From Octopus sinensis (Eukaryota), in NCBI RefSeq assembly GCF_006345805.1, contig NC_043007.1, forward strand, positions 34,534,001 through 34,598,000: 64,000 nt of DNA. The letters run 5' to 3'. The number at the start of each line of letters is the position of its first letter. Position 1 is the stretch's first letter. This document shows positions 13,218-64,000 of this stretch, piece after piece. Both the position numbers and the translations under genes were made by a program. Below the pieces are notes generated by a model. The model was not told the DNA's origin. It worked only from the letters and a program-made list of their open reading frames with translations, and did not search any database.

Positions 13218-13752
13218 TTTCGTCCTTCTGCACCTTCTGAGTTGAAATTCCGCCGAGGTCATCTTTGCCTTTCATCTTTTCGGGGTTGATGAAATATGTA
13301 CCAGTTACACACTGGAGTCGATATAATCGATTGGCCTCCTCCCCCAAAATTTCAGGCCTTGTCCCTATAGTAAAAAGGATTATTGTACGTATACTTAAGC
13401 GGCGAGCTGGCAGAATCGTTAGCACGCCGGACGAAATGCTTAGCGGTATTTCGTCTGCCGCTACGTTCTGAGTTCAAATTCTGCCGAGGTCAACTTTTCC
13501 TTTCATCCTTTCGAGGTCGATTAAATAAGTACTAGTTGCGTACTGGGGTCGATGTAATCGACTTAATCTGTTTGTCTGTCCTCGTTTGTCCCCTCTATGT
13601 TTAGCCCCTTGTGGGCAATAAAGAAATAGGAATTGTTGGCTTGCCGGGTGAAAATCCTTAGCAGCATTTCGTCCGTCTTTACGTTCTGAGTTCAAATGCT
13701 GCCGAGGATGACTTTGGCTTTCATCCTTTCGGAGTCGATAAAATAAGTACCA
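13218..13752 (+). mobile_element. Three SINE B units; the middle copy is full length with the Tx1-like tail
   Basis: Head gcggcgagctggcagaatcgttagc at 13399; tail gccccttgtgggcaataaagaaata ending at 13628. Confidence 0.85.
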
Positions 13753-44559: not shown

Positions 44560-44749
44560 CCTTATGGGAAGGACTGATGAAATGTAACCACCCGATTTCG
44601 GGGATCGAGTGGGCATTGCACTGCATTGTAATATATTTTCATGACTCATTTTTTAATTTTCTTCGTCTTATTTCATCCTCTTTTATTATTTCTAAGTTCC
44701 CCGATTGTATCGCCCCCTCTTTGTTGGCCCCTTGTGGGTAATAAAAAAA
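44560..44749 (+). mobile_element. 3'UTR and tail of a Tx1-family element (5' limit uncertain)
   Basis: T-rich UTR ending gccccttgtgggtaataaaaaaa. Confidence 0.7.
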
Positions 44750-44825
44750 TTCAGCCGCTTCTACTGAGTGCTGCTGTTGGTTTATTTCTTATACATAAAG
44801 GACTACAGCTTCAATTGCGTACTGC

Positions 44826-46474
44826 GCGTCGTGGAGTGGTTGTTTTTTATAAGTTGCTGACTATTTATTGATTGTTGAATCTTTTGTTGTTGAACTTTTT
44901 TGTTATACGGTTTTGTTATACGGATTTTGGTTGTTGTCTGTCTGTGTTGAGACGGACAGGGGCAGCCCCTCCCTAATGGGAGAGACGGCAAGAATATTCT
45001 AAACCGTATCGGACTTGTCTGCGTCTGAGGAGGAGTTGGAGAAGGCGGTAAGAAAGAATGGACCAGAGATTGGGAATGCTTGTGCTGGAGTGGCCAAAAA
45101 ATCAGAGGAGAGAGAGTTAGACTTGGCCAAACTGCCAAGCTATCAGGAGTTTATCAAGAAGGACGGCGGTGAGGTGGAATTAGCACCGCCACCAAAATGC
45201 AGAGAATGGTACGAGGAAAGGACTATTACATACCGGGTCTATGTAAACGGAAAGAGAAAAATCGAAGTGGTAAATATGGAATGGATAGAAGAGGCTCTGA
45301 GAAGAACAGAGGAGGAGATAACATTTCTGACAAGAGGTATAGGCTACGGTACTGTGGTGGTACAGTTCGGAAGTGAAAGTGTAGCAAGGAGGATGGCGGC
45401 GAAAGCAGTAAAGTCTGAGAGGGTATTCCTTTTGCCCTCATACCTAAACAGGAAAATCACTAGAGTAAGGGTAGAGGGAATACCCCCAAATGTCGAAGCT
45501 GAATGGATTGTGGCAGCTATAATTAGCGGTCATGTAGAAGAAGTAGACATTCTCCATGCCACGGTAAAAATCGAAGGCTGGAGAGGCGCAACGCTAGATT
45601 TGAATGTACAAGCGGATGATGAAGTACTAGAGAATTTAACAGAGAACATCAGAATGGGAGGCGTTATCATGAGAGTGTGGGTGGAGGGCAGAGCTCCACG
45701 CTGTTACAAGTGTGGCCTGAGAGGTCACATAAGAGCTAACTGCCCTCCCCCATCGAAAGATATGGATGCGAAACCACAGAGAGATAGAGGAGGAGCAGAA
45801 CCCAAAGGAGAGAGAGAGAGAGAGAGACAACGGAGGAGGAGGAGGAGGTTTCAAAAGAATGGGAAGAAGTCAGGAAAAAGAGAAGAAGAAGAAAAACAAA
45901 TAATGTTGAACCCCAATCCACCCCAACACCACCCGCACCCTCTGAGACCCACCCTTCCCCTGCAGACAGTGAACCCACCCACTCCCCACCAACAAGAAAA
46001 CAAAAGAGAGAAGCATACGAACAAGATACTAAAAATAAACCTAGGCCCAACATTCTATGTATTGCAGGGAAATAAAAAAAGACTTTGACGGACTACCAAT
46101 GGTGTGATAGGGGACGGAAAAGATGTGCAGTAATCCCAAAGGAACAAGTGGATGAGTTTGTGGAAAGGTGCGAAGGGAAGGACTGGGGAATATCTAAGGT
46201 GAACATGGATGAAGAGACGGTGAAGGAGTTGGAAGAGTGGTTCGAGAGAGAGATAGAGAGGAAGGCATATTGCATTGGGACTGAGCAAGGGATATTTGTT
46301 TGAGACTAATAACTAAAGGACAGGTAAGTGATGCTAGCGGAATGGGGCCGTTAGTATCACTTTCATCTATCATCTTCATATTTCATCTTTCATATCTATG
46401 TTATTGTGATGTTCTATGTCCCCAATGTTTGTAGTGTCCCTTCTGTGTGGCCCCTCGTGGGTAATAAAGAAATA
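44826..46474 (+). mobile_element. Complete ORF1-only non-autonomous Tx1-related retroelement (HAL1-like), 1.65 kb
   Basis: 16-bp TSD TTCAATTGCGTACTGC at 44810-44825 and 46475-46490; ORF1, then ~170 bp, then the shared tail. Confidence 0.85.
45015..46303 (+). pseudogene. ORF1 (Gag-like, CCHC knuckle CYKCGLRGHIRANC), disrupted near 45810 and ~46075
   Basis: Homologous to ORF1 at 47357; ORF 46085-46303 is probably its C-terminus. Confidence 0.8.
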
Positions 46475-46901
46475 TTCAATTGCGTACTGCTTTTTGATTC
46501 ACCGTAAGGTTTGTTATTATTATTACTGTTTAACTGAAGGAAGCCATGTGTCGAAGCCATCAGGAAGCGTCGATGCTTCCTAGGGCTAAACAGCGGTGGT
46601 GTAACCCCCTACGGTCACGTTCACGTTAGATTGACAGTATACAACCATTCTATCGCCCCACCACCGTACATATCTCTATGAGAGATTTAGAAATTTAATA
46701 TTTCTGTTTAACTATTGTTATCACATTTGTTGGTTCCTCGAAAGGGAAACGTTGTTGTGTTGCATTTGTTAAATAATTGTAAACCGTAACCCTCCCCATT
46801 TGGGAGAAGGAGCTTTGGTTATTGTTCAAAAATTGAATTGTGTCCCTGTTTGGGGAAATTGACAATATTTTCATTGTTTATACGGAAGCAATTTTGTTAA
46901 A

Positions 46902-47138
46902 ATGCCTTCGATAGAAGAAAGTCCAAAAATGAATTTCGTTGCAGCCGTCGGCGGGCGTGAGCTCATTAAAATTAAAATGGAAGAAATACAAACCTATTTC
47001 GGATTGATCACCGACAAAGACAGTGAATCTAGGATAACACCACCAAACGAAATAAAAAATTAATTTAAAGAAAAGACTATATTGTCTATAAAGTATACAA
47101 TGTAGAGAAAAAAAAAAGATTTGAACACCTGGAGGAAA
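46902..47138 (+). pseudogene. N-terminal part of a decayed Tx1-family ORF1 (host of the full-length LINE)
   Basis: NFVAAVGGRELIKIKMEE...VYKVYNVEKKKRFEHLEE aligns with ORF1 at 47357. Confidence 0.7.
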
Positions 47139-47356
47139 TCAATTTTTTGCGTTATTAGTAAGTTGATATATATTTTTGCTCTCGTACTATTATCTCTGTT
47201 ATTATATACTGTTGGTCTACCTGTTTTTGTCTATTGTTGTCTAACGGACGAAGTCAGCCTTCGCGCGAAGACTTCGCGTTGGTGTTCCCCCCTCAGTGGG
47301 GGAAAACTACAATTAATTTGGATTTACCAAAGGCTTGTTAAAGCCATTTGTTCAAG

Positions 47357-48736
47357 ATGGAGTCCCCCATCTCTTATTCGCCCGTGACGAGCGAGGATGA
47401 ATACCCGGCGTTGGCGCCAGGAAAAAAAGAGGCGTTGTCGCCAAGAAAAAAAGAGGCGTTGTCGCCGAAGAAAAAAGAGGCGGCGTCGCCCAAGAAAATG
47501 GAAAAACCAGTACCAGCATCAACTCCAGCAAAAAAATTCGCTGAAGTGGCTGGGAAAAAGATCAAAAAAATAAATATAGAAAATTTTAAAAAATTTGCAG
47601 ACTGTGTAAAAAAAGAAGGCACAGAAGTGACTGTGGCCACAAACATACAAATACATGACGATATAGAAAAAAAAAGAATAATATATAAAACTTACGACAC
47701 AACGAAAAAAATGATCCAAAAAATCGAAGAAAAAAAAATAGAGTTTTGTCTAAAACCTTTTATGGATAAAATAACGTATATAAACAGAGGAAAAAGATAC
47801 GGCACAGTGGAGGTGCGTTTTACTACGGAGGAGATAGCGAAGAAACTATCGATGGAGCCAATCAAAGCGGAAAACATTGTCTTACTACCATTGTACAAAG
47901 GAAAAAGGACGTCGAAAATTTCAATGAACAACATACCGCCAGAGGCAGATGCTGAATGTCTGGTGGCAGCAGTGATGGTAGGTCTGGAGGAAAAAATAAA
48001 CATCCTCCAGGCCACAGTGGAAGAAGAGGAGTTTTGGAAAGGGCAAAAAATAGTGATAGCCATTCAGGCGGAGGTGCAAACACTGGAAGAAATTCCAGAA
48101 ACGGTAAAGATTAGTGAAGACGAGAAAATAACAGTTTTCGTGGAGGGCAGGAAGCCGAGGTGCTTCGGCTGCGGCAAGAAGGGTCATGTAAGGGCGGAAT
48201 GCCAACCCCAACCCAAACCGCAGGAAGCACCTAAGCCAAAAGAAAAAGAAGATAATGTGTCACCAGAAGCAGCGTCGGACGGCCCAGAAGGGAAGACTGA
48301 AGGTGTGGAGGTGACGGTGACAGCAGAACCAGCGGCGGAGGAAAAAAAGAGCGAGGAAAAGATAAATGAGGAGAGGTGGGCAAAAATTACCGGAAGGAAA
48401 AAAAGAAAAACGGAAACCACCCCTCCCAGAGTAATTTTAAAAAAGAAAAAAGAGTCAATGAACTCATATATGGCCGTAAAGGCAGCAAATAGCAGACTCG
48501 GAAACGTGTTGGCAGCCATGGCCAAAGTGGAGAAAGTAATGAAAAAAAACGACTTTGTAATTTACAGAATAGGCCGGAAGGATTACGGGCGGATAAAGTC
48601 AGAATTCTTCCATGACGTAGGCCCACTTAGATTGGATGTGACATCTCCACATATATTCGAGGGCCTACGTCAGACTCCCCCACGAGGCCCAGAAAAAGAG
48701 TTAGAAGAACAAGAAAAAACCGAACCACTGATATAA
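47357..48736 (+). CDS. LINE ORF1 nucleic-acid-binding protein (CCHC zinc knuckle)
   Basis: CFGCGKKGHVRAEC; first ATG at 47357; position upstream of ORF2. Confidence 0.9.
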   Translation: MESPISYSPVTSEDEYPALAPGKKEALSPRKKEALSPKKKEAASPKKMEKPVPASTPAKKFAEVAGKKIKKINIENFKKFADCVKKEGTEVTVATNIQIHDDIEKKRIIYKTYDTTKKMIQKIEEKKIEFCLKPFMDKITYINRGKRYGTVEVRFTTEEIAKKLSMEPIKAENIVLLPLYKGKRTSKISMNNIPPEADAECLVAAVMVGLEEKINILQATVEEEEFWKGQKIVIAIQAEVQTLEEIPETVKISEDEKITVFVEGRKPRCFGCGKKGHVRAECQPQPKPQEAPKPKEKEDNVSPEAASDGPEGKTEGVEVTVTAEPAAEEKKSEEKINEERWAKITGRKKRKTETTPPRVILKKKKESMNSYMAVKAANSRLGNVLAAMAKVEKVMKKNDFVIYRIGRKDYGRIKSEFFHDVGPLRLDVTSPHIFEGLRQTPPRGPEKELEEQEKTEPLI

Positions 48737-48744
48737 GGTAAGTA

Positions 48745-51700
48745 ATGGATTACATTTATGTTGGTTGTTTGAACGTGCGCGGCCTGGGAGCAGGCTGGAA
48801 GCAAGGTCGCTTCCTGCATGATATCAGGTCGCGTAATTTAGATGTTATTGTTGCTACAGAAACCCGGTTAGAGGGGCCAAGAGGTCTACTCCCGCTGTTT
48901 GACGGCTACGAGAGTTTTTTCTCTCCTGGCAGTCCTACAGGCGGGAGTGGGGTGTTGGTCCTATTAAAAAGAAACCGGGTTTCTGAGAAAAAGTTAATTT
49001 TTGCAGATCCAGAAGGTAGGCTGGTCGTCATGGATTTGACGTTCAGTAATGGTAAAGTTATCAGACTGGTTGCAATTTACGCACCCAACCATACAGGGCA
49101 AAGTGATTATTTTCGTGAACTAGAAAACTTTCTTGGTACTTCGCATTCATTAGTGGTGCTAGGAGACTTTAACACAATTTGCAAAGCGGATGTAGATTAT
49201 GTTGGCTCGTGTCCAGATAGAAAAGGCAACAGTGGCTTCATGGAACTGCTAAGCCGCTTTGAGCTAGCAGATCCTTATAGGCTGGAATTTCCGAACGCTC
49301 CATTGTGGACATGGTCAAACAGCGACGGATCTTCCAGGTCATATTTAGATAGAATACTAATTAGAAAAGTAGACAGTAAAATAGCTAAGTGTCCACAGTT
49401 TTACCCGATCAGCTACAGTGATCATAAAATGGTCACTTGTAAGCTTGACATAGATAAGGTTAAAAATAGAGGATCCGGTTACTGGAAACTTAATACGTCC
49501 CTTTTGGCGATTAAGGAGTACAAAGACCGGATTAGGAATATAATTCAGAGGGCACTATCTGGTACCATCATTAATAACAAATGGTGGTACGCCCTCAAAC
49601 GAGCCATCAAGTTTGAGTCTATTAGATATAGCATAGGAGTAGTGGCTAGAGAGGCTAGAAGGGAAACTACTCTAGTTAAGGAATTAGAGGAAGCCATGAA
49701 AACTGGCTCTGCGGCTCAGGTGGCGTCCAAGAGACTGGTGTTAAACCAGCACCTCGAGGCCAAACACATGGGCTGCATTGTCAGGGCTAGAATCCGCCAT
49801 ATGGGATGTGAAGGAATCAACGCCGTGAGATGGGCCCGAGTGGTGGAAGCTCGGCATGGTAACGATGCCACGATTCGATCTTTGACGAACCAACAAGGTG
49901 AGTTGATAAACGAACCCGAGGAGATGTGTGAGGCCTTTCAGGAGCACTTCGCTCAGCTTTTCGGTGAGTGCGGCGGACTGGATAGGAGGAGGGCCTTTAC
50001 GGACCTACTCGACGGGCTGCCACGCTTATCGGGGCGAGATGCGGAGGGCTGTGAAGGGCCAATCACGCCTGAGGAGGTGGTTGAGGCAATGGCGGACTGC
50101 GGCGCGGGCAAGGCGCCGGGTTTGGATGGTCTACCCTATGAGTTATATAAGAGTATGCCAGACTTGTTCGGGCACCTACTGGCGGAGGTCTATGCGAACT
50201 GGCAGCAGAACGGGCTTATACCCAGATCTGTGCGCCGGGGAGTAGTGACTCTCGTCAGAAAGGACCCGAGCAAGGGGGAGTGCATTGATAATTTCAGGCC
50301 CATCACTCTACTAAACACAGAGTTGAAGATTTTGGCCAAAGTGTTATCGAAAATATTGGCGCGTGTCGCGGATGGTCTGATCGGAGAGGCACAGACATGT
50401 GCCGTTCCGGGCAGATCCATTCAGGATAATCTCCATCTAATGCGGTACACTATAGAGGGGTTTAATAGTGATTCTGGCAAGGGTGGGGCACTGGTCCATT
50501 TAGACCAATCTAAAGCTTTTGATAGGGTCGACCATCGTTACCTGGTATCTGCCCTGGCACAGTTCGGGCTGAGCCTTGGCTTCCTCAGGTGGATTATCCA
50601 AATTTATGATAACATCGACTCGGTAGTTCGGGTGAACGGCTTCTTGTCGAAGCCGTTCAAAATCAAACGCTCGGTTCGTCAAGGGTGTCCGCTCTCCCCG
50701 CTTTTGTACGTGATGGCTCTCGAGCCATTACTGCGAAAACTGAGCAGCATCCCGAGACAGCCAGGTAATGGAAAATCAGTGTCAGCGTACGCGGATGACA
50801 TCACCATCATCGTAACCGAAATGGACCACCTATGTAAAGTAGGCAAGGCCATAGAGGTTTACGAGACGGTGACAGGAGCAAAAGTTAATCGCGAAAAGTC
50901 AGTCGGCTTGCAACTCGGCACCTGGAGAGGCAAGTCGATGCCTCCTGACAGCGTCGTGGGACGTTGGACGGAGGGTCCGATTAAACTGCTAGGGGTCTGG
51001 TTCGGTCCAGACCTCCAAATAGAGAAGAATTGGGGCGAGGTAACGAGCAAGGTGGCTGCAGTAGCCAAGACCTGGTCTTGGCGGTGGCTATCCCTGAAAG
51101 GGAGGGCGGAGGTGGCCAATGTGTTTATCGCATCGGTTATCACCTACCGCCTTTCCGTCGTTCCTTGCCCTGATTCGTGGTTGATCAAGTTGGAAAGACA
51201 GCTCTTCTACTTCTTGTGGAAGGGCGGGAAACCACTTGTGAAACGCTCTACTTGCTGTCAACAACCGTTAAAGGGTGGGCTAGGGATGCCTTGGCTGATG
51301 ATGCGCAGACATGCGCTGAGGTTAAGACATCTGTGGCTCTACCTGGATGGTGAACGGGTGTGGTCTTCGCTAGCAAAACTGATGTTTCCCAAGTTCACTA
51401 GTTTCGGTGGATGGGAAACCTGGCTGAATCGTAGATCGAAACTTGGTACTTGGTACACGGAGTGTCGCAAGGCTCTCCTGCTATTCCGTCGCTCGGGCAA
51501 CGCCTGCGGTGGGGGTTCCACCACATTCTTCTATAGAGGGTTGGTAGAGGCGGAATGTGAAGATACCTTGGGGGAAACCCTAGGTCTCGACGATAATCAG
51601 CTGGCCAGTCTGTTCCGACGTACGTTCGAGCCGAGGACACTGGACAACTTCCAGAAGTCTCTGGCATGGCAATGCTACAGAGGAGCTCTACCTGTTCGGG

Positions 51701-52140
51701 ATAACCTTGCAAGGCACGGTGGCCAAGACAGTCCGATATGTCCAAGATGCGGGCGGGATAGGGAAACCGTCCCGCACGCTATTGTTCATTGTCCGGACGT
51801 GTCTGAGGTGTGGGTTTATGCCGAACACCTGTTGTCAGGTACACGAAGAGTACAGCTGTCGACTGAGTCGATTACAAAAATTGACCCACCGGATTTCCTC
51901 GTGAATGAAGGTAAGTTTCGTTTTCTCGTTGTAGTAGCAATTGCGAAAGAGGTGATATGGAAGACGAGAATGAAAGGTTTACAGTCAGGCAAGTTCATCT
52001 CCGGCCCTGGTTTGATGAATTATTTTATCTTTCACCTGAAAAGGAAGATAGGGCTGGAGAGAATATGCCTGACTAGGAGAGTGTATGAAGAACGATGGAA
52101 GGATGTAGCACGAAAGTTGCGAGTGAAAGATACAACATAA
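48745..52140 (+). CDS. LINE ORF2: APE endonuclease, reverse transcriptase and C-terminal zinc finger
   Basis: LNVRGL, GDFN, YLDR, SDH; GYWKLN; KAPGLDG, FRPITL, KAFDRV, VRQGCPLSP, YADD; CPRC..ETVPHAIVHC. Confidence 0.97.
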   Translation: MDYIYVGCLNVRGLGAGWKQGRFLHDIRSRNLDVIVATETRLEGPRGLLPLFDGYESFFSPGSPTGGSGVLVLLKRNRVSEKKLIFADPEGRLVVMDLTFSNGKVIRLVAIYAPNHTGQSDYFRELENFLGTSHSLVVLGDFNTICKADVDYVGSCPDRKGNSGFMELLSRFELADPYRLEFPNAPLWTWSNSDGSSRSYLDRILIRKVDSKIAKCPQFYPISYSDHKMVTCKLDIDKVKNRGSGYWKLNTSLLAIKEYKDRIRNIIQRALSGTIINNKWWYALKRAIKFESIRYSIGVVAREARRETTLVKELEEAMKTGSAAQVASKRLVLNQHLEAKHMGCIVRARIRHMGCEGINAVRWARVVEARHGNDATIRSLTNQQGELINEPEEMCEAFQEHFAQLFGECGGLDRRRAFTDLLDGLPRLSGRDAEGCEGPITPEEVVEAMADCGAGKAPGLDGLPYELYKSMPDLFGHLLAEVYANWQQNGLIPRSVRRGVVTLVRKDPSKGECIDNFRPITLLNTELKILAKVLSKILARVADGLIGEAQTCAVPGRSIQDNLHLMRYTIEGFNSDSGKGGALVHLDQSKAFDRVDHRYLVSALAQFGLSLGFLRWIIQIYDNIDSVVRVNGFLSKPFKIKRSVRQGCPLSPLLYVMALEPLLRKLSSIPRQPGNGKSVSAYADDITIIVTEMDHLCKVGKAIEVYETVTGAKVNREKSVGLQLGTWRGKSMPPDSVVGRWTEGPIKLLGVWFGPDLQIEKNWGEVTSKVAAVAKTWSWRWLSLKGRAEVANVFIASVITYRLSVVPCPDSWLIKLERQLFYFLWKGGKPLVKRSTCCQQPLKGGLGMPWLMMRRHALRLRHLWLYLDGERVWSSLAKLMFPKFTSFGGWETWLNRRSKLGTWYTECRKALLLFRRSGNACGGGSTTFFYRGLVEAECEDTLGETLGLDDNQLASLFRRTFEPRTLDNFQKSLAWQCYRGALPVRDNLARHGGQDSPICPRCGRDRETVPHAIVHCPDVSEVWVYAEHLLSGTRRVQLSTESITKIDPPDFLVNEGKFRFLVVVAIAKEVIWKTRMKGLQSGKFISGPGLMNYFIFHLKRKIGLERICLTRRVYEERWKDVARKLRVKDTT

Positions 52141-52397
52141 ATGTAATACCAAGCGCAACCAAAAGTATCAGTGGGGAGGCGGGGCTCGTGGGGTCCGAGC
52201 TAAACCCGCACCCACTCCACCCGTAATGTCTTCCGGTCTGTCCCATCATTCGATTTCTGTCCATTTATTGTAATTCATGAAAATTTTTAAATCCGATTTA
52301 TTGTAAAAATCACTCGTTTGTCTGACCCCATCATCAGATTGTATTGTCCCATCTATGTTCGCCCCTTGTGGGTAATAATAAAACAACCTGGAGGAAA

Positions 52398-52700
52398 GCA
52401 CCATCGAAAAGTGTCTTGGTGCGACTATGAAAGATATCAAGTATCTAACCAGAGGCGGTAAATTCGCCTCAATAGAAGCAAGGGTCGAGTCAACAGAGCG
52501 TGCAAGGGAGTACTCGACTAACCTTGCAAAGTGGAAATATTTTATTTTTACCTTTATATCTGGGACGTAGGACGTCCCGGATAAGAATTAAAAATGTTCC
52601 CCCAGAAGTAGGTGTAGGCTGGATTGTAGCCACACTTCTATACAAGAGGGAGGACAAGATACAATTGATCGAAATTGCAAGAGACGAGCCTACAATTCCA
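52398..52700 (+). pseudogene. Continuation of the host ORF1 begun at 46902
   Basis: In frame across the TSD: LEE|STIEKCLGATMKDIKYLTRGGKFASIE; then LFLPLYLGRRTSRIRIKNVPPE. Confidence 0.8.
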
Positions 52701-52727
52701 GTCTGTTATATATTTTGAGTATTGTTA

Positions 52728-52873
52728 TCACTAGCGATATCAAGATATAACTTTGTATTTTATGTGTAGATGTATATATATAGATGTACATGTAATATGT
52801 ACACATATATATATTTACACATATATACATGCACTACCACTATGACCCGGCAACGACGGGTCATAATGCTAGT
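52728..52873 (+). mobile_element. Helitron-like 3' end (hairpin plus CTAG|T)
   Basis: TATGACCCG gcaacga CGGGTCATA followed by atgCTAGt. Confidence 0.55.
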
Positions 52874-53534: not shown

Positions 53535-55489
53535 CTTACTGCGCATGTGCGAGTCAGTGTTGTGTTTGGCACTGAAGCAGTGAAGATGTGCTTTTGAAGC
53601 CGTCTTGAATTGAAAACTTTGGAAGCCCCATGTAAGGTAAGATTGTTTTCTGGGTCCAGTGGGAGTTTTTGTTGAGAATTGTTTTTTACATGCAGGAAGT
53701 CCTACTGGATTCAGAATTCTGATTCTGCCGACATGTGGCAAATATATTTTTCTCGCTGAGAAAATTTTTGGGGGCGTATCCGTCTTCGATAAAGTGAGTA
53801 AATATTTTTCTCACGTAATTGTGAGAATTGTATTGTGCTGTGAAGAACTACCAATTTTACACCAATTTTTGTGGAAGTTGTGCGATCCTGGTTCGATTTA
53901 GGCCGGGAGTACCAAATGGCCAAAAGGATTTTGCTGTGTTATTGACTTTCTTTTTAACTTTATTTGACTCTCTCCTTTTTTCACTGTGACTTTCTTCGGA
54001 TTTCCTTTTCTCGTTTTTTAGTTTTATTCTGAATACATTTATTTAAAAAAAAAAAAAAAACATGGCAACAAAAGAAACCACTGCTTTGGAATGGGAGGTC
54101 GTCCCACCCAAGCAGTGGATTGAAAGTCTTGAGAAGAGGACGGTGGTCCTACGAACCTATTCTAGGTCGCGTGGAGCCATTGCCCTCTTCGACAGGAATA
54201 CTATAGAGAAAGAGTTGGGGGACCACCTGCCAACTATAAAATTTATTTCTCGGGGGACTAAATTTGCGACGGTGTGGTTGCTAGCAGATTTGCTAGCGAG
54301 CCACTGGAGGGAGAGGAAATTTTGTTCCTCCCCTCGTATTGTGGCAGAAAAGTAAAAAGAGCCTGGGTGTGTAGGCTGCCCCCGGGCACGGAGGCGGAAT
54401 GGATCGAGAAGACCATCCGGCGAGGCCTGGGGGATAGCGGACCCAGACTACTGAGTGTGAAAATGGCTCCCGCAGTCGCCTGGGAGGAGTCAAAGGCAAC
54501 TTTGACCCTGTGGACACCGGTGGCCGTGGGAGAAATGAAATTCCCGGACTTCCTGAGAATGGCTGGGCACAGGTACCCGGTGATACTCGAGGGTCGCCCC
54601 TCCCAAGTGTCACCTGTGCCTGAAGCCCGGACATATCAGGAAGAATTGTCCCGGGGGCCGTGGTGGTGCCCCGGAGCAGAAAGGGGAAAAGGCGCCCGCC
54701 GCCCCCTCATTGGAGGGGGAGACGGTGGAAGTCGTGGAGGAGGTTGCCTCCACGAAAAGAAAGAGACAGGCGAGCAACAATGGTTGCCCGCCAAAGAACG
54801 CTCAGGGGGCGGAGGGGGATAGCAATCCCCCGTGTCTGGTGACGGAGTCCCCTGGGTCAGCAGTCTCCCCCAAAAGAAGGAGGAGAAAAAGGAGAGGTCG
54901 GACGACTGACGTTTCTGTGTCGCCGACGGAGCCGCGGGTGGGATGTGTGCCACCCGCGGACAAGGCTCCGCCAGTAGGAAATGTTCCACTGACGGAGCAG
55001 TGTGAGGTCCCTTCCTGTGAAGAGGAGATGCTTCTCCTCCTTTACCACAAGGGAGAGGAGGTGGAAAGATTTTTGAATGGCTTGGGTGACCGAGAACGTA
55101 AGGACACGGTCGGCTCAAGGAGTCCGTTATGGCCTATGCGGGTAGCTGCGGAAAAAGTAACGGAAGATACTTTGTCAAGGGTCGCAGAGACCTTTGAGAG
55201 GAAAGATTTTACTTTTCTCTTTGCAGGCCCCGACTTGTCGTCGCAGAGTTGTCTGCAGGCGGCAAGACAATTTGCTTCGGGGACCTGACGAGGAGAATTG
55301 TTGAACATTTTTTATGTAATTTGAATCATTGTGAACATTTTATTAAATGTATTTATTGAAACATTGTTTTAGAGAAGCGAAAGTCGGCGGGCGCTTTCGA
55401 CTTCTCCCATCACCATCATCCATTAACGTCCTTGTCCAGCCCGTAGCTACTACTCTGTGTGCTGCCCTAGTGGCAAATTATATAAAATA
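53535..55489 (+). mobile_element. Second, divergent ORF1-only element inserted in a SINE A head
   Basis: Probable TSD AAGTAGCTT (53526-53534 and 55490-55498); tail variant gctgccctagtggcaaattatataaaataa. Confidence 0.65.
54062..55288 (+). pseudogene. Frameshifted ORF1 (CCHC knuckle CHLCLKPGHIRKNC after a frameshift near 54600)
   Basis: RTVVLRTY, FISRGTKFATV, LFLPSYCGRK, LPPGTEAEWI and LEGRP align with the other ORF1s. Confidence 0.75.
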
Positions 55490-55858: not shown

Positions 55859-55974
55859 ATATTGAAAAATAAAAAAAGTATTTTGTAGGGGGAGGGGGCA
55901 TTTGTGACCTCAAGTGTCAAAAGGAGGCAGTTGGCCAAAATGTGTTGAGAACCTTTGGTTTACATTTTGAGCAA

Positions 55975-56046
55975 GGTTTCATGGTGTAATGGTTAGCACC
56001 CTGGACTTTGAATTCAGCGATCCGAGTTCGAATCTCAGGAGGACCT
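55975..56046 (+). tRNA. tRNA-Gln(TTG), probably a pseudogene
   Basis: 72 nt closely matching canonical eukaryotic tRNA-Gln; two acceptor-stem mismatches and one T-stem mismatch; no oligo-T terminator. Confidence 0.75.
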
Positions 56047-56204
56047 TAACTTCTTAAAGCGGTGTTCCAGCATAACCGCAGTCAAGTGACTGAAACGAGC
56101 AAAAGAATATATGGGAGTACCAAGCTTTTTTAAGTGCTTAGGGCCTCTACGGATCATAATCCGGCCCTAGTTGTAAGCATTGTTTAAGTGAGAACATATA
56201 TATA

Positions 56205-60845: not shown

Positions 60846-62446
60846 ATGCCAGACTTGTTCGGGTACGTATTGGCCGGCGTTTTCGCGAACTGGCGGCAGA
60901 ATGGGTTCATTCTCAGATCTGTGCGCCGGGGAGTGGTGACGCTGATCAGGAAGTACCCGAGCAAGGGGGATAGAATAGATAACTTCAGGCCCATCACTCT
61001 GCTGAATGCAGAGGTGAAGATTTTGGCCAAGGTGTTAGCGAAAAGGTTGACGCGTGTCACGGATGGCCTAATCGGGGAAGCACAAACTTGTGCGGTCCCC
61101 GGAAGGACCATTCAGGATAATCTTCACCTTATACGTTACACCGTAGAAGGGTTCGGGAATAATTCTGGCGAAGGTGGGGCACTGGTCCATAACTTACCCA
61201 GGGACAGTTTACCAGTGACCATCTTGTGATCACTGTAACTGACCGGGTGAAGCTGTGGACACTTAAAGTAAAGCTTTCGATAGGGTGAACCATCGGTACT
61301 TGGTGTCTGTGCCTGCACAGTTCAGTCTAGGCATTGGTTTTCTCAGGTGGATTATACAGTTGTACAACAACATCGACTCGATCATTCAGGTGAATGGCTT
61401 CCTTTCGAAGCCGTTCCGCATCAAACGTTCGTCAAGGGTGTCCGCTCTTCCCGCTTATATATGTGATGACTCTCGAGCCATTACTGCGAAAGCCGAGCGC
61501 CATCCCGACGAATCCAGGAGGTGGAGGATCTGTTACATCGTATGCGGACGACATCACCATCATCATGGCCAAGGTGGAACTCCTACAGAATGTGGGAGAT
61601 AGCATCAAGGCTTACGAGACGGTGACAGGAGCAAAAATTAATCGAGAAAAGTCAGTCGGCTTGCAACTCGGCACCTGGAGGGGCAAGTCGATGCCTTCGA
61701 ATAGCATCGTGGGATGCTGGACGGAGGGCCCGGTTAAATTGCTAGGGATCTGGTTTGGTCCAGATATCCAGATAGAAAAGAACTGGTCTGAGGTGGCGAG
61801 CAAGGTGGCTTACGCGGTCGAGACTTGGTCTTGGCGGTGGCTATCCTTGAAAGGGAGGGAGGAGGTGGCCAATGTGTTTATAGCATCGGTCATCACTTAC
61901 CGCCTAACCGTCGTTCCTTGTCCGGATTCGTGGTTGAGCAAGTTGGAGGGGCAAATCTTTCGCTTTCTGTGGAAGGGTACCCCTCTTGTAAGACGTTCTA
62001 TTTGCTATCAGAAGCCGTTAAAGGGTGGGTTAGGAATGCCTTGGCTGTTGATGCGCAAACATGCGCTGAGGTTGAGGCATCTTTGGCTCTACCTGGATGG
62101 TGAAAGGTTGAGTTAGAGAAAAGGTGTCTGTCAGAATGCGAGTTTCGAAAAAGATGGAAGCGTGTGGCACGATTGTTGGGCGTGAAAGACACTACATGAA
62201 CACGCTATGAGTCAGCTACCAAGGTTTCAGTGGAAAAATAGGGCTCGTGGGGTCGGCAATCCTGTTTTTTCTGCATCATGCGTCCTTTTCGTGTTTTTTT
62301 TTTTTTTGTTAATGTGTATCATTCGATTTTCGATTTCATTGTAATTTTTAACCATCATTTAATGTTTTATATCATAGTTTTAACATGACCCCAATCATGT
62401 TGTACAGTTCCCCTCTATGTTGGCCCCTTGTGGGTAATAAAGAAAT
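60846..62446 (+). pseudogene. 5'-truncated, rearranged Tx1 ORF2 copy with 3' tail
   Basis: High similarity to 50155-52140; inverted insert, internal deletion, tail gccccttgtgggtaataaagaaat. Confidence 0.9.
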
Positions 62447-62449
62447 CAG

Positions 62450-64000
62450 AACCTGATCTTAAGCTGTCGCTTATTCATCGATACTTCAGAAAACTGTTTA
62501 TTGTGAGTTGCTTATTTGTTGATTGTTGAATTTATTGTTGTGGAACGTTTTGGTGTACGGCTTTTGGTTGTTGTCTGTGTTGAGACGGACAGGGAGAAAA
62601 TGGACTGCCCCTCCCTAACGGGAGGGATGGCCAGACAAAGGTTGTTTGAAAGTTTGTCAGAACTGTCGACGTCCGAAGAGGAGCTGGAAAGGGTAGTGAA
62701 GAAAATGGATGAAAGACTAGGTAATACATATGCAGGAGTGACGAAGAAGAAGTCGGGAGAAAAGGAGATAAACTTGGTCAAGCTGCCAGGCTTCCAGGAA
62801 TTTATGGAAAAGGAAGACGGTGAAGTCGAACTGTCACCACCAACAAAACGTGGTGAGTGGTTCGATCGCAGGACCGTCAAGTATCGAGTGTATGCAAACG
62901 GAAAGAAAAGAATAGAAATAGTAAGCATGGAAATTATTGAAGAAGCGCTAAAACAAACAGAGGAAGAAATTGTATATTTGACAAGAGGCATGGAATACGG
63001 TACGGTAACGGTTCAATTTAGGAGCGAGAGCGTCGCAAGAAAAATGGCAGCTAAAACAGTGAAAACGGATAAGGTATACCTGCTACCTTCGTACTTGAAC
63101 AGGAAAACCACGCGAATCAGGGTGGAGGGAATACCCCCACACCTAGAAGGCCAATATATAGCAGCAGCTGTAATTAAAGGTAATGAAGAAGAGGTGGATA
63201 TCCTCCATGCCACCATAAAATATGAAGGCTGGAGGGGTGCTACCCTGGATATGAACGTACAGGCGGAGACCGAAACGCTGGAAAGGTTAACGGAAAGCAT
63301 AAGGATGGGAAACATCATCATGAGAGTGTGGGTGGAGGGCAGAGCCCCGCGCTGTTATAAGTGTGGCCTGAGAGGCCACATAAGAGACAACTGCCCTCCC
63401 CTACCAAAGGAAAGTGTGACGGAACCCCAAAGAGAGGAAGAGACTAAGGAGGAAGAACGGAACCAAACAGAAAAGGTAACAACAGAAGAAGAGGAGTCCA
63501 GCAAGAGTGGGAAGAAGGAAGGAAAAAAAGAAAGAGAAAATTAAACAGTACGGAACCCCAATCCACCCCAACACCACCCGCACCATCTGAGTCCCACCCT
63601 TCCCCTGCAGACAGTGAACCCACTCGCTCCCCACCAACAAGAAAACAGAAAAAAGATACACACAGCCAAGACACTAAAAAATAACCCAGGCCCAACGTTT
63701 TATGCATTGCAGGGAAGGAGAAGATAAAAAAGACAATGATAGACTACCAATGGTGTGGTAAGGGACGGAGTAGATACGCAGTAATTGCAAAGGAACAAGT
63801 AGACGAGTTTATAGAAAGGTGCGAAAGTGGGGACTGGGAAATATGTAAAGTGAAAATGGTTGAAGAGATGATGATGGAATTGGAAGAGGAGTTCGAGAGA
63901 AGGATAGAGATGGAGGTATATTATATTGGGACTGAGCATGGGGTATTTGTTTGGGATTGACGACTGAAGGACAGGTAAGTGATGCTAGCGGATGGGGCCG
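62450..64000 (+). mobile_element. Second copy of the 44826 ORF1-only family (runs off the window)
   Basis: Colinear with 44870-46349, including the post-ORF1 sequence gacaggtaagtgatgctagcgg. Confidence 0.8.
62600..63960 (+). pseudogene. ORF1 (CYKCGLRGHIRDNC), with a frameshift before ~63540 and a stop at ~63682
   Basis: ATG at 62600; ORFs 62516-63544 and 63736-63960 join in a common ancestral frame. Confidence 0.8.

Follow-up and report, generated by a model that had tools for sequence, protein, structure and literature searches.

A 1.65-kb unit in the genome of Octopus sinensis carries a zinc-knuckle ORF1 and a LINE-like 3′ tail between perfect 16-bp direct repeats and contains no ORF2 (Table 1). 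It raises the question of whether a single LINE has lost its ORF2 at this locus or whether a whole family spreads without one. We find that this unit, copy 1, is a dead member of an ORF1-only family, here called family A, which is large and has been spreading recently. Positions refer to the window, the whole 64,000-nt stretch of DNA that was analysed.

Family-A Copies in the Window

The 16-bp repeat TTCAATTGCGTACTGC occurs only twice in the window, at the two boundaries of copy 1, which confirms the target-site duplication (TSD) proposed for the unit. The proposed layout of a zinc-knuckle ORF1, a spacer of about 170 nt and a tail without ORF2 also stands, but ORF1 is not intact: its frame, which stops at 46301-46303 with the tail about 170 nt further on, is broken by TAA codons at 45000-45002 and 46072-46074 and by a frameshift in a GA repeat near 45810. 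Copy 2, whose broken ORF1 begins at 62600, aligns colinearly with copy 1 through the sequence behind ORF1 at 74% identity, and the differences in the RAPRCYK segment are synonymous, both as the original prediction had it. Between the two copies, dN/dS comes to 0.09 for the core and 0.16 for the whole ORF. An ORF2 following position 64000 had been named as evidence against an ORF1-only family; read past the window end, copy 2 stops at 64104 in a damaged tail without ORF2, and the next ORF2 (66526) is part of a LINE that has its own ORF1. A search for a TSD of copy 2 found none. The window copies are older members, at distances of 12% and 10% from the relatives closest to them.

Copy 1 stands within a repeat that we take to be Helitron-like from its 3′ hairpin followed by CTAG. 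A young LINE, copy 1, and a short insertion divide this host repeat into pieces (44752-44823, 46475-46535, 46695-47141, and 52386-52873). The repeat, which also occurs at loci L226-L250 (1932 first-look candidates), carries a captured LINE 5′ UTR and a two-RRM piece and is closest to the LINE ORF1s of L281 and L283. A 3′ end resembling that of family B (see below), with hairpin and tail and no recognisable ORF, lies at 44575-44750, just upstream of the host repeat. A tRNA-Gln-like sequence, unrelated to the family, is present at 55974-56047 (+) and was the only match in Rfam and ARAGORN scans.

Table 1. Features of copy 1, copy 2, and the adjoining LINE (positions in the window)
Feature	Position	Strand	Remarks
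Host repeat, presumably Helitron-like, 1.65 kb	44752-52873	+	Carries captured LINE 5′ UTR and ORF1 piece
Left TSD, 16 bp	44810-44825	+	TTCAATTGCGTACTGC
Family-A copy 1	44826-46474	+	1.65-kb ORF1-only non-LTR retroelement copy, no ORF2
5′ UTR of copy 1	44826-44975	+	
ORF1 of copy 1, broken	44976-46303	+	Intact relatives 410-540 aa
Two predicted RRM-like domains	45192-45698	+	From model of intact relative P0001
Single CCHC zinc knuckle	45702-45743	+	Pfam zf-CCHC E 9e-4, below curated cut-off
C-terminal alpha/beta domain, ~90 aa	46043-46303	+	Predicted
CAGGTAAGT motif	46321-46329	+	Splice-donor-like
11-bp hairpin	46330-46358	+	GGGG loop
3′ tail	46435-46474	+	Core common to LINEs, family B, SINE
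Right TSD	46475-46490	+	Same 16-bp direct repeat
Young LINE, full length	47139-52385	+	Adjoins copy 1; inserted at preferred site CACCTGGAGGAAA; candidate trans partner
Young LINE ORF1	47357-48736	+	
Young LINE ORF2	48745-52140	+	
Family-A copy 2	62450-64000, continuing to 64104	+	Directly behind tail of truncated LINE

A Large Family without ORF2

The genome was searched at the DNA level (best 40 of 935 candidates scored, mostly full-length colinear copies) and at the protein level (best 150 of 14441 first-look candidates scored, 61-100% identity). The census set combined 30 loci per search with 80 further stretches from other protein-search matches, with overlaps merged, and ORF1s at least 50% identical to the intact relative P0001 were assigned to family A. 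Among these sampled candidates, at least 176 family-A ORF1s occur, spread over 37 contigs and 121 merged loci. None of the 175 copies with at least 800 nt downstream is followed within 1300 nt by an endonuclease start; in the LINE ORF1s of the same set, ORF2 lies 475-664 nt behind the knuckle. The family-A tail is positioned 665-735 nt behind the core in 165 of the 175 copies, 817-875 nt in three, and 196 nt in one, and is absent in six. Fragments from the middle of ORF2 lie beyond the tail in three copies and belong to neighbouring elements. The absence of ORF2 is therefore a trait of the family, and copies with ORF2 behind this ORF1, which had been named as evidence against it, were not seen (0/175).

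TSDs scoring at least 10 were found for 36 of 64 solo copies compared with 7 of 300 cross-paired controls, several of these copies sharing a target or being duplicates; the other 28 have no clear TSD (5′ truncation, decay). With these TSDs and its distribution over 37 contigs, family A has multiplied as a unit by retrotransposition. The nearest non-adjacent copy lies within 1% for 45 of 175 copies and within 2% for 94; some identical pairs on different contigs also match in their flanks and may stem from segmental duplication or from the assembly. Constant spacing, distinct TSDs, and this close similarity support the propagating non-autonomous family of the original prediction. Subfamilies are 53-100% identical and differ in their 5′ ends. 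An open ORF1 (410-540 aa) is kept in 43 of the 176 copies.

A single-sequence protein search with ORF1 gave one match and a profile search 1450. Among ten profile matches looked up, nine were named relatives, all octopod (Octopus and Argonauta labels), and members of the family are annotated as uncharacterised host genes. In contigs of four runs (three presumed RNA, one of unspecified kind), coverage of a young copy extends to 17-30 of its 30 bins, which is not evidence of transcription.

ORF1 Domains and Purifying Selection

In the predicted structure of P0001, two RRM-like domains come first and the knuckle next; a linker modelled as disordered then leads to a C-terminal domain that is folded. 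The predicted RRM-like region gave tandem-RRM matches in Foldseek (E 5e-5) and aligned with a La RRM (VIA-align Z 8.8, rmsd 2.6, 80 aligned); searched as sequence against solved structures, ORF1 matched zinc knuckles only. The C, C, H, and C of the knuckle are invariant across 16 ORF1s. The C-terminal domain, modelled confidently (pLDDT 79.5), had a best Z of 4.8 and no Foldseek match under E 1, which does not make the predicted domain a new fold. Its identity among subfamilies is 16-54%, and its history is discordant with that of the core. At L045, L103, L120, and L122 we observe swapped modules: one pair is 61% identical in the core and 88% in the C-terminal domain, and the opposite swaps are 92-94% identical in the core and 20% in the C-terminal domain.

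The median core dN/dS is 0.16 (441 pairs from 31 copies, dS up to ~2), the pairs not being independent and the modules being mosaic. Third codon positions of the core differ at 0.35 across the 31 copies compared with 0.15 and 0.14 at the other two. With dN/dS at about 0.15, far below the value near 1 that relaxed constraint would give, we read ORF1 as being under purifying selection across deeply diverged subfamilies.

Signals behind ORF1

The sequence AGGTAAGT at the splice-donor-like motif behind ORF1 is exact in 161 of 176 family-A copies, across three reading frames, and the ORF1-ORF2 junction of the adjacent LINE carries AAGGTAAGTAATG. This shared motif may be left over from the deletion point or act as a cis signal common to both; no GT-ended joints at the donor-like motif were found among the read joints listed. 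The hairpin that follows folds in all 14 listed variants, with G-U pairs and one two-sided change, and GGGG-containing hairpins are also present in the 3′ UTRs of LINEs and family B. The tail had been described as the same as that of the neighbouring LINE; this holds for the core CCCC-T-GTGGGTAATAA, but not for the endings, which are AAAGAAAT in family A, as in the truncated LINE at 60846-62450 and in an abundant SINE, and AATAAAAC in the adjacent LINE. The remaining family-A 3′ UTR has no close match in any sampled LINE. Given that the 230-nt SINE (13392-13630 in the window, with some 20 further copies) ends in the family-A tail, it has probably been moved by these LINEs.

Target Sites, Candidate Partners, and Arrays

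Thirteen of 19 3′ flanks of the young LINE's family show one and the same target, and this preferred target lies within the host repeat, in the captured ORF1 piece. Ten of 165 family-A copies stand at this target (1 of 1910 background windows), and their presence at the neighbouring LINE's own site supports mobilisation in trans; the count at one spot in the SINE head is also 10 of 165 (8 of 1910 background windows). A copy of another LINE (L322) has its 3′ flank in common with three family-A copies. Since just 10 of 165 copies are at the young LINE's site and three share another LINE's target, the young LINE's ORF2 is probably not the only partner. No match to any reference repeat used was found for 78 of the 165 3′ flanks. 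Twelve of the 165 copies lie inside the Helitron-like repeat, all in one orientation and at no fewer than four different positions, seven of them at the LINE's position; copy 1 is not at that position. Strict sequence specificity of family A is rejected, the TSDs of solo copies being diverse.

Another element adjoins 96 of the 160 family-A copies with enough flank, and family-A and family-B units stand head to tail with LINEs. At C6:70.54-70.56 Mb (L096, L097), an array is formed by nine family-A units that are almost identical and spaced 1.75 kb apart. At least eight bases are shared by 50 of 87 neighbouring array junctions compared with 43 of 600 between arrays, a comparison confounded by subfamily-specific 5′ ends. 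Targeting of any tail is rejected, given that 38 of 46 upstream tails belong to family A and none is assigned to the far commoner SINE.

A-to-G Hypermutated Copies

A whole-copy excess of A-to-G changes relative to nearest neighbours was found in 2 of 150 testable family-A copies and in no copy in three control tests. These two have 127 A>G compared with 4 G>A, 1 T>C, and 0 C>T, and 55 compared with 7, 1, and 4. A windowed scan flagged A>G in 6 of 176 family-A copies, G>A in one, and T>C or C>T in none; elsewhere it flagged 1 of 42 family-B pieces and 0 of 29 LINE pieces. With a seventh family-A copy (20 A>G, 2 G>A), six or seven copies, about 4%, are hypermutated in the genome assembly, of which the A-to-G changes may be an artefact. 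Edited copies include those at C10182:45193, C5:48434145, and C24:25473755.

ADAR enzymes prefer the 5′ neighbours U>A>C>G. The fraction of sites edited is 0.53 after U, 0.29 after A, 0.19 after C, and 0.04 after G, and the five copies outside the first test repeat the pattern (G depletion p 9e-17); G depletion is much weaker in the remaining family-A copies (odds 0.62). Whichever the genomic orientation of a copy, the sense strand of the element carries the changes, and 2 A>G are present among the 168 A sites of the flank upstream of the most edited copy. Array neighbours of edited units are mostly unedited, though near-identical, and two downstream units have a few A-to-G changes in their 5′ ends. 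Clustered sense-strand changes in an ADAR-type context, confined to the transcribed unit, are what a hyper-edited retrocopy is expected to display, and the pattern fits ADAR acting on RNA before reverse transcription. Edited single units among unedited array neighbours point to an RNA intermediate and insertion unit by unit. Multimeric read-through RNA is disfavoured as the usual source of arrays, as the edits do not extend through neighbouring units. In the most edited copy, the A-to-G changes start inside the apparent 5′ TSD, at L101:8830-8810 (-); this one case suggests that the 5′ end of its RNA already carried target-like sequence.

Relation to LINEs and Other ORF1-Only Families

LINEs were sampled with three endonuclease queries and represent roughly eight families, a sampling that a rare autonomous parent could escape. 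Family-A ORF1s are 32-40% identical to those of LINEs in this genome, and we regard the two as homologous; the best upstream LINE ORF1 is 40% identical among the 118 endonuclease-start matches listed (overlapping loci counted twice). In a quick tree built from 38 ORF1 cores, family A forms one long-stemmed clade (SH-aLRT 100, stem 0.77) nested among LINE ORF1s and apart from families B, C, and E. Family A thus appears to have evolved for long without a close parent among the best-scoring LINEs sampled. A single origin of all ORF1-only families, a group named before the tree was seen, is rejected (p-AU 0.0003 in this quick tree), which implies that ORF2 was likely lost at least twice.

Other ORF1-only families and candidates are present as well. 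The second family, B (L101:417-1823 (-), L176-L205), is young and shares 33% identity with A, and its tail lies 890-925 nt behind the core in 29 of 30 loci; its tail ending and target are those of the young LINE, and it often forms LINE-B-LINE chains. Family E has two members seen, the window unit at 54062-55480 (+), which is ORF1-like with a hairpin, a tail-like end, and no ORF2, and a relative in L148. C1 and C2 (L034, L035, L154), apparently ORF1-only and 31-36% identical to A, lie within an array of family-A copies. A LINE family of this group (L311-L328) has 3′ ends that run into (TATC)n repeats.

The ORF2 of the young LINE, which has many near-identical copies, contains endonuclease, RT, and zinc-finger domains. 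It matches a protein labelled TX1 149 kDa (288 bits over a 431-aa RT region) and human L1 ORF2p (222 bits over 867 aa). The APE-RT-zinc finger order and the preference for one site (13/19 flanks) are as in the Tx1 clade; we use the name Tx1 on the basis of these similarity labels and the architecture.

Mobilisation Model and Alternatives

We consider it very probable that family A is a self-standing ORF1-only family, the RNA of which would be packaged by its own ORF1p and copied by ORF2p borrowed from several Tx1-type LINEs. In this model, Pol II would transcribe the element from its 5′ UTR, and ORF1p, for which we infer a chaperone role, would act in cis and package its own RNA, so that selection keeps ORF1. 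The hairpin and tail would recruit foreign ORF2p for target-primed reverse transcription, which we posit as mobilisation in trans; the borrowed endonuclease would set the insertion site, which would be the partner's. Arrays would grow by single RNAs through re-use of a duplicated target site, template switching among co-packaged RNAs would swap ORF1 modules, and ADAR-hyper-edited RNAs would sometimes be copied into the germline. The wider picture, for which we judge the case favourable on balance, is an old, parentless guild of ORF1-only elements of at least two origins that uses varied LINE ORF2s and its partners' targets, stacks its units, swaps modules, and has ADAR edits written into the germline in about 4% of copies.

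It seems quite unlikely to us that ORF1 is kept because it helps or inhibits the particles of partner LINEs, in mixed multimers, with the RNA as a passive passenger. Multimerisation with autonomous partners has been proposed for HeT-A-like proteins (PMC5786205), family-A and family-B units do stand head to tail with LINEs, and the C-terminal domain varies fast; however, a protein that works only in trans brings no selection on the copies encoding it, ORF1-less derivatives should take over, and the full spacing is instead kept in 165 of 175 copies. We give very little credence to repeated internal deletion of an unsampled autonomous LINE, from which the selection signal would be inherited: although only the best 150 of 14441 first-look candidates were scored and core and C-terminal domain differ in history, 165 of 175 copies, from subfamilies that are 53-100% identical, have one junction and tail distance, none of the 175 has ORF2, and no LINE ORF1 exceeds 40% among the matches listed. 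Almost no weight falls on spread as DNA, through a Helitron-like host or tandem and segmental duplication, despite the 96 of 160 copies adjoining another element, the 12 of 165 inside the Helitron-like repeat, and the duplicates with identical flanks, given the many distinct TSDs, the four or more positions within the host, and the edited units beside unedited near-identical neighbours.

Comparison with Known Systems

The HAL1 elements derived from mammalian L1 encode an ORF1p with coiled coil, RRM, and CTD and end in a poly(A) tail. Family A is an octopus family with Tx1-type relatives and an RRM-RRM-CCHC ORF1, its tail is short, fixed, and without a poly(A) run, and it has shared target sites, arrays, and no close autonomous parent among the sampled LINEs. 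It is thus not HAL1 proper, given the CCHC knuckle behind two RRM-like domains and the tail ending in AAAGAAAT. The likeness is that HAL1 is also a non-autonomous LINE derivative that encodes ORF1p only and is reported to have arisen several times (PMC5753468).

Non-autonomous LINEs that retain ORF1 are described from the Jockey, L1, and CR1 clades as HeT-A, HAL1, and Ag-Sponge (PMC5786205). The telomeric Jockey elements of Drosophila, HeT-A among them, resemble the octopus families in being ORF1-only, in forming head-to-tail arrays mixed with autonomous partners, in repeated ORF2 loss, and in that ORF1-only lineages give rise to new ones (PMC5786205, PMC13534243). Family A is not HeT-A: its insertions are interstitial, make TSDs, lie on 37 contigs, and are not telomeric as far as seen, and the partner ORF2 resembles that of L1/Tx1, another LINE clade. 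Ag-Sponge of Anopheles, likewise a bipartite ORF1-present non-autonomous LINE, belongs to the CR1 clade (PMC5786205). In Tx1-Mar with SINEU (crocodilians) and Tx1 in Tx1D (Xenopus), Tx1-clade LINEs prefer sites within a non-autonomous DNA transposon, and for Tx1-Mar/SINEU the shared target is taken as evidence of trans-mobilisation and TSD-sandwiching tandem copies are described (PMC4494074). The octopus passenger differs in encoding a conserved protein, and its host is Helitron-like, with the site in a captured ORF1 piece.

L1-Tx1 elements are reported from cephalopods and gastropods, with no ORF1-only forms listed in the available text of these sources (PMC13282606, PMC8967140, PMC11203168). 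Our literature search found neither ORF1-only Tx1-type or mollusc elements, in agreement with the original prediction, which knew of no such case, nor edited genomic LINE copies; Repbase and Dfam lay outside its scope and may hold these families.

The ORF1-only lifestyle is already known from HAL1, HeT-A, and Ag-Sponge, and what is new is the group that carries it: the octopus families add molluscs and a fourth LINE group to its range. Family A offers a natural experiment on the purpose of ORF1p, given that selection retains ORF1 in an element encoding nothing else, even as the C-terminal domain of the protein is swapped or changes rapidly. The shared target sites provide testable pairings of passenger and ORF2 donor. 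Provided that the A-to-G changes exist in the genomic DNA, edited RNA has become heritable sequence in the animals most noted for RNA editing, and germline ADAR action on retrotransposon RNA would be measurable from the genome alone, as a fossil record of editing.
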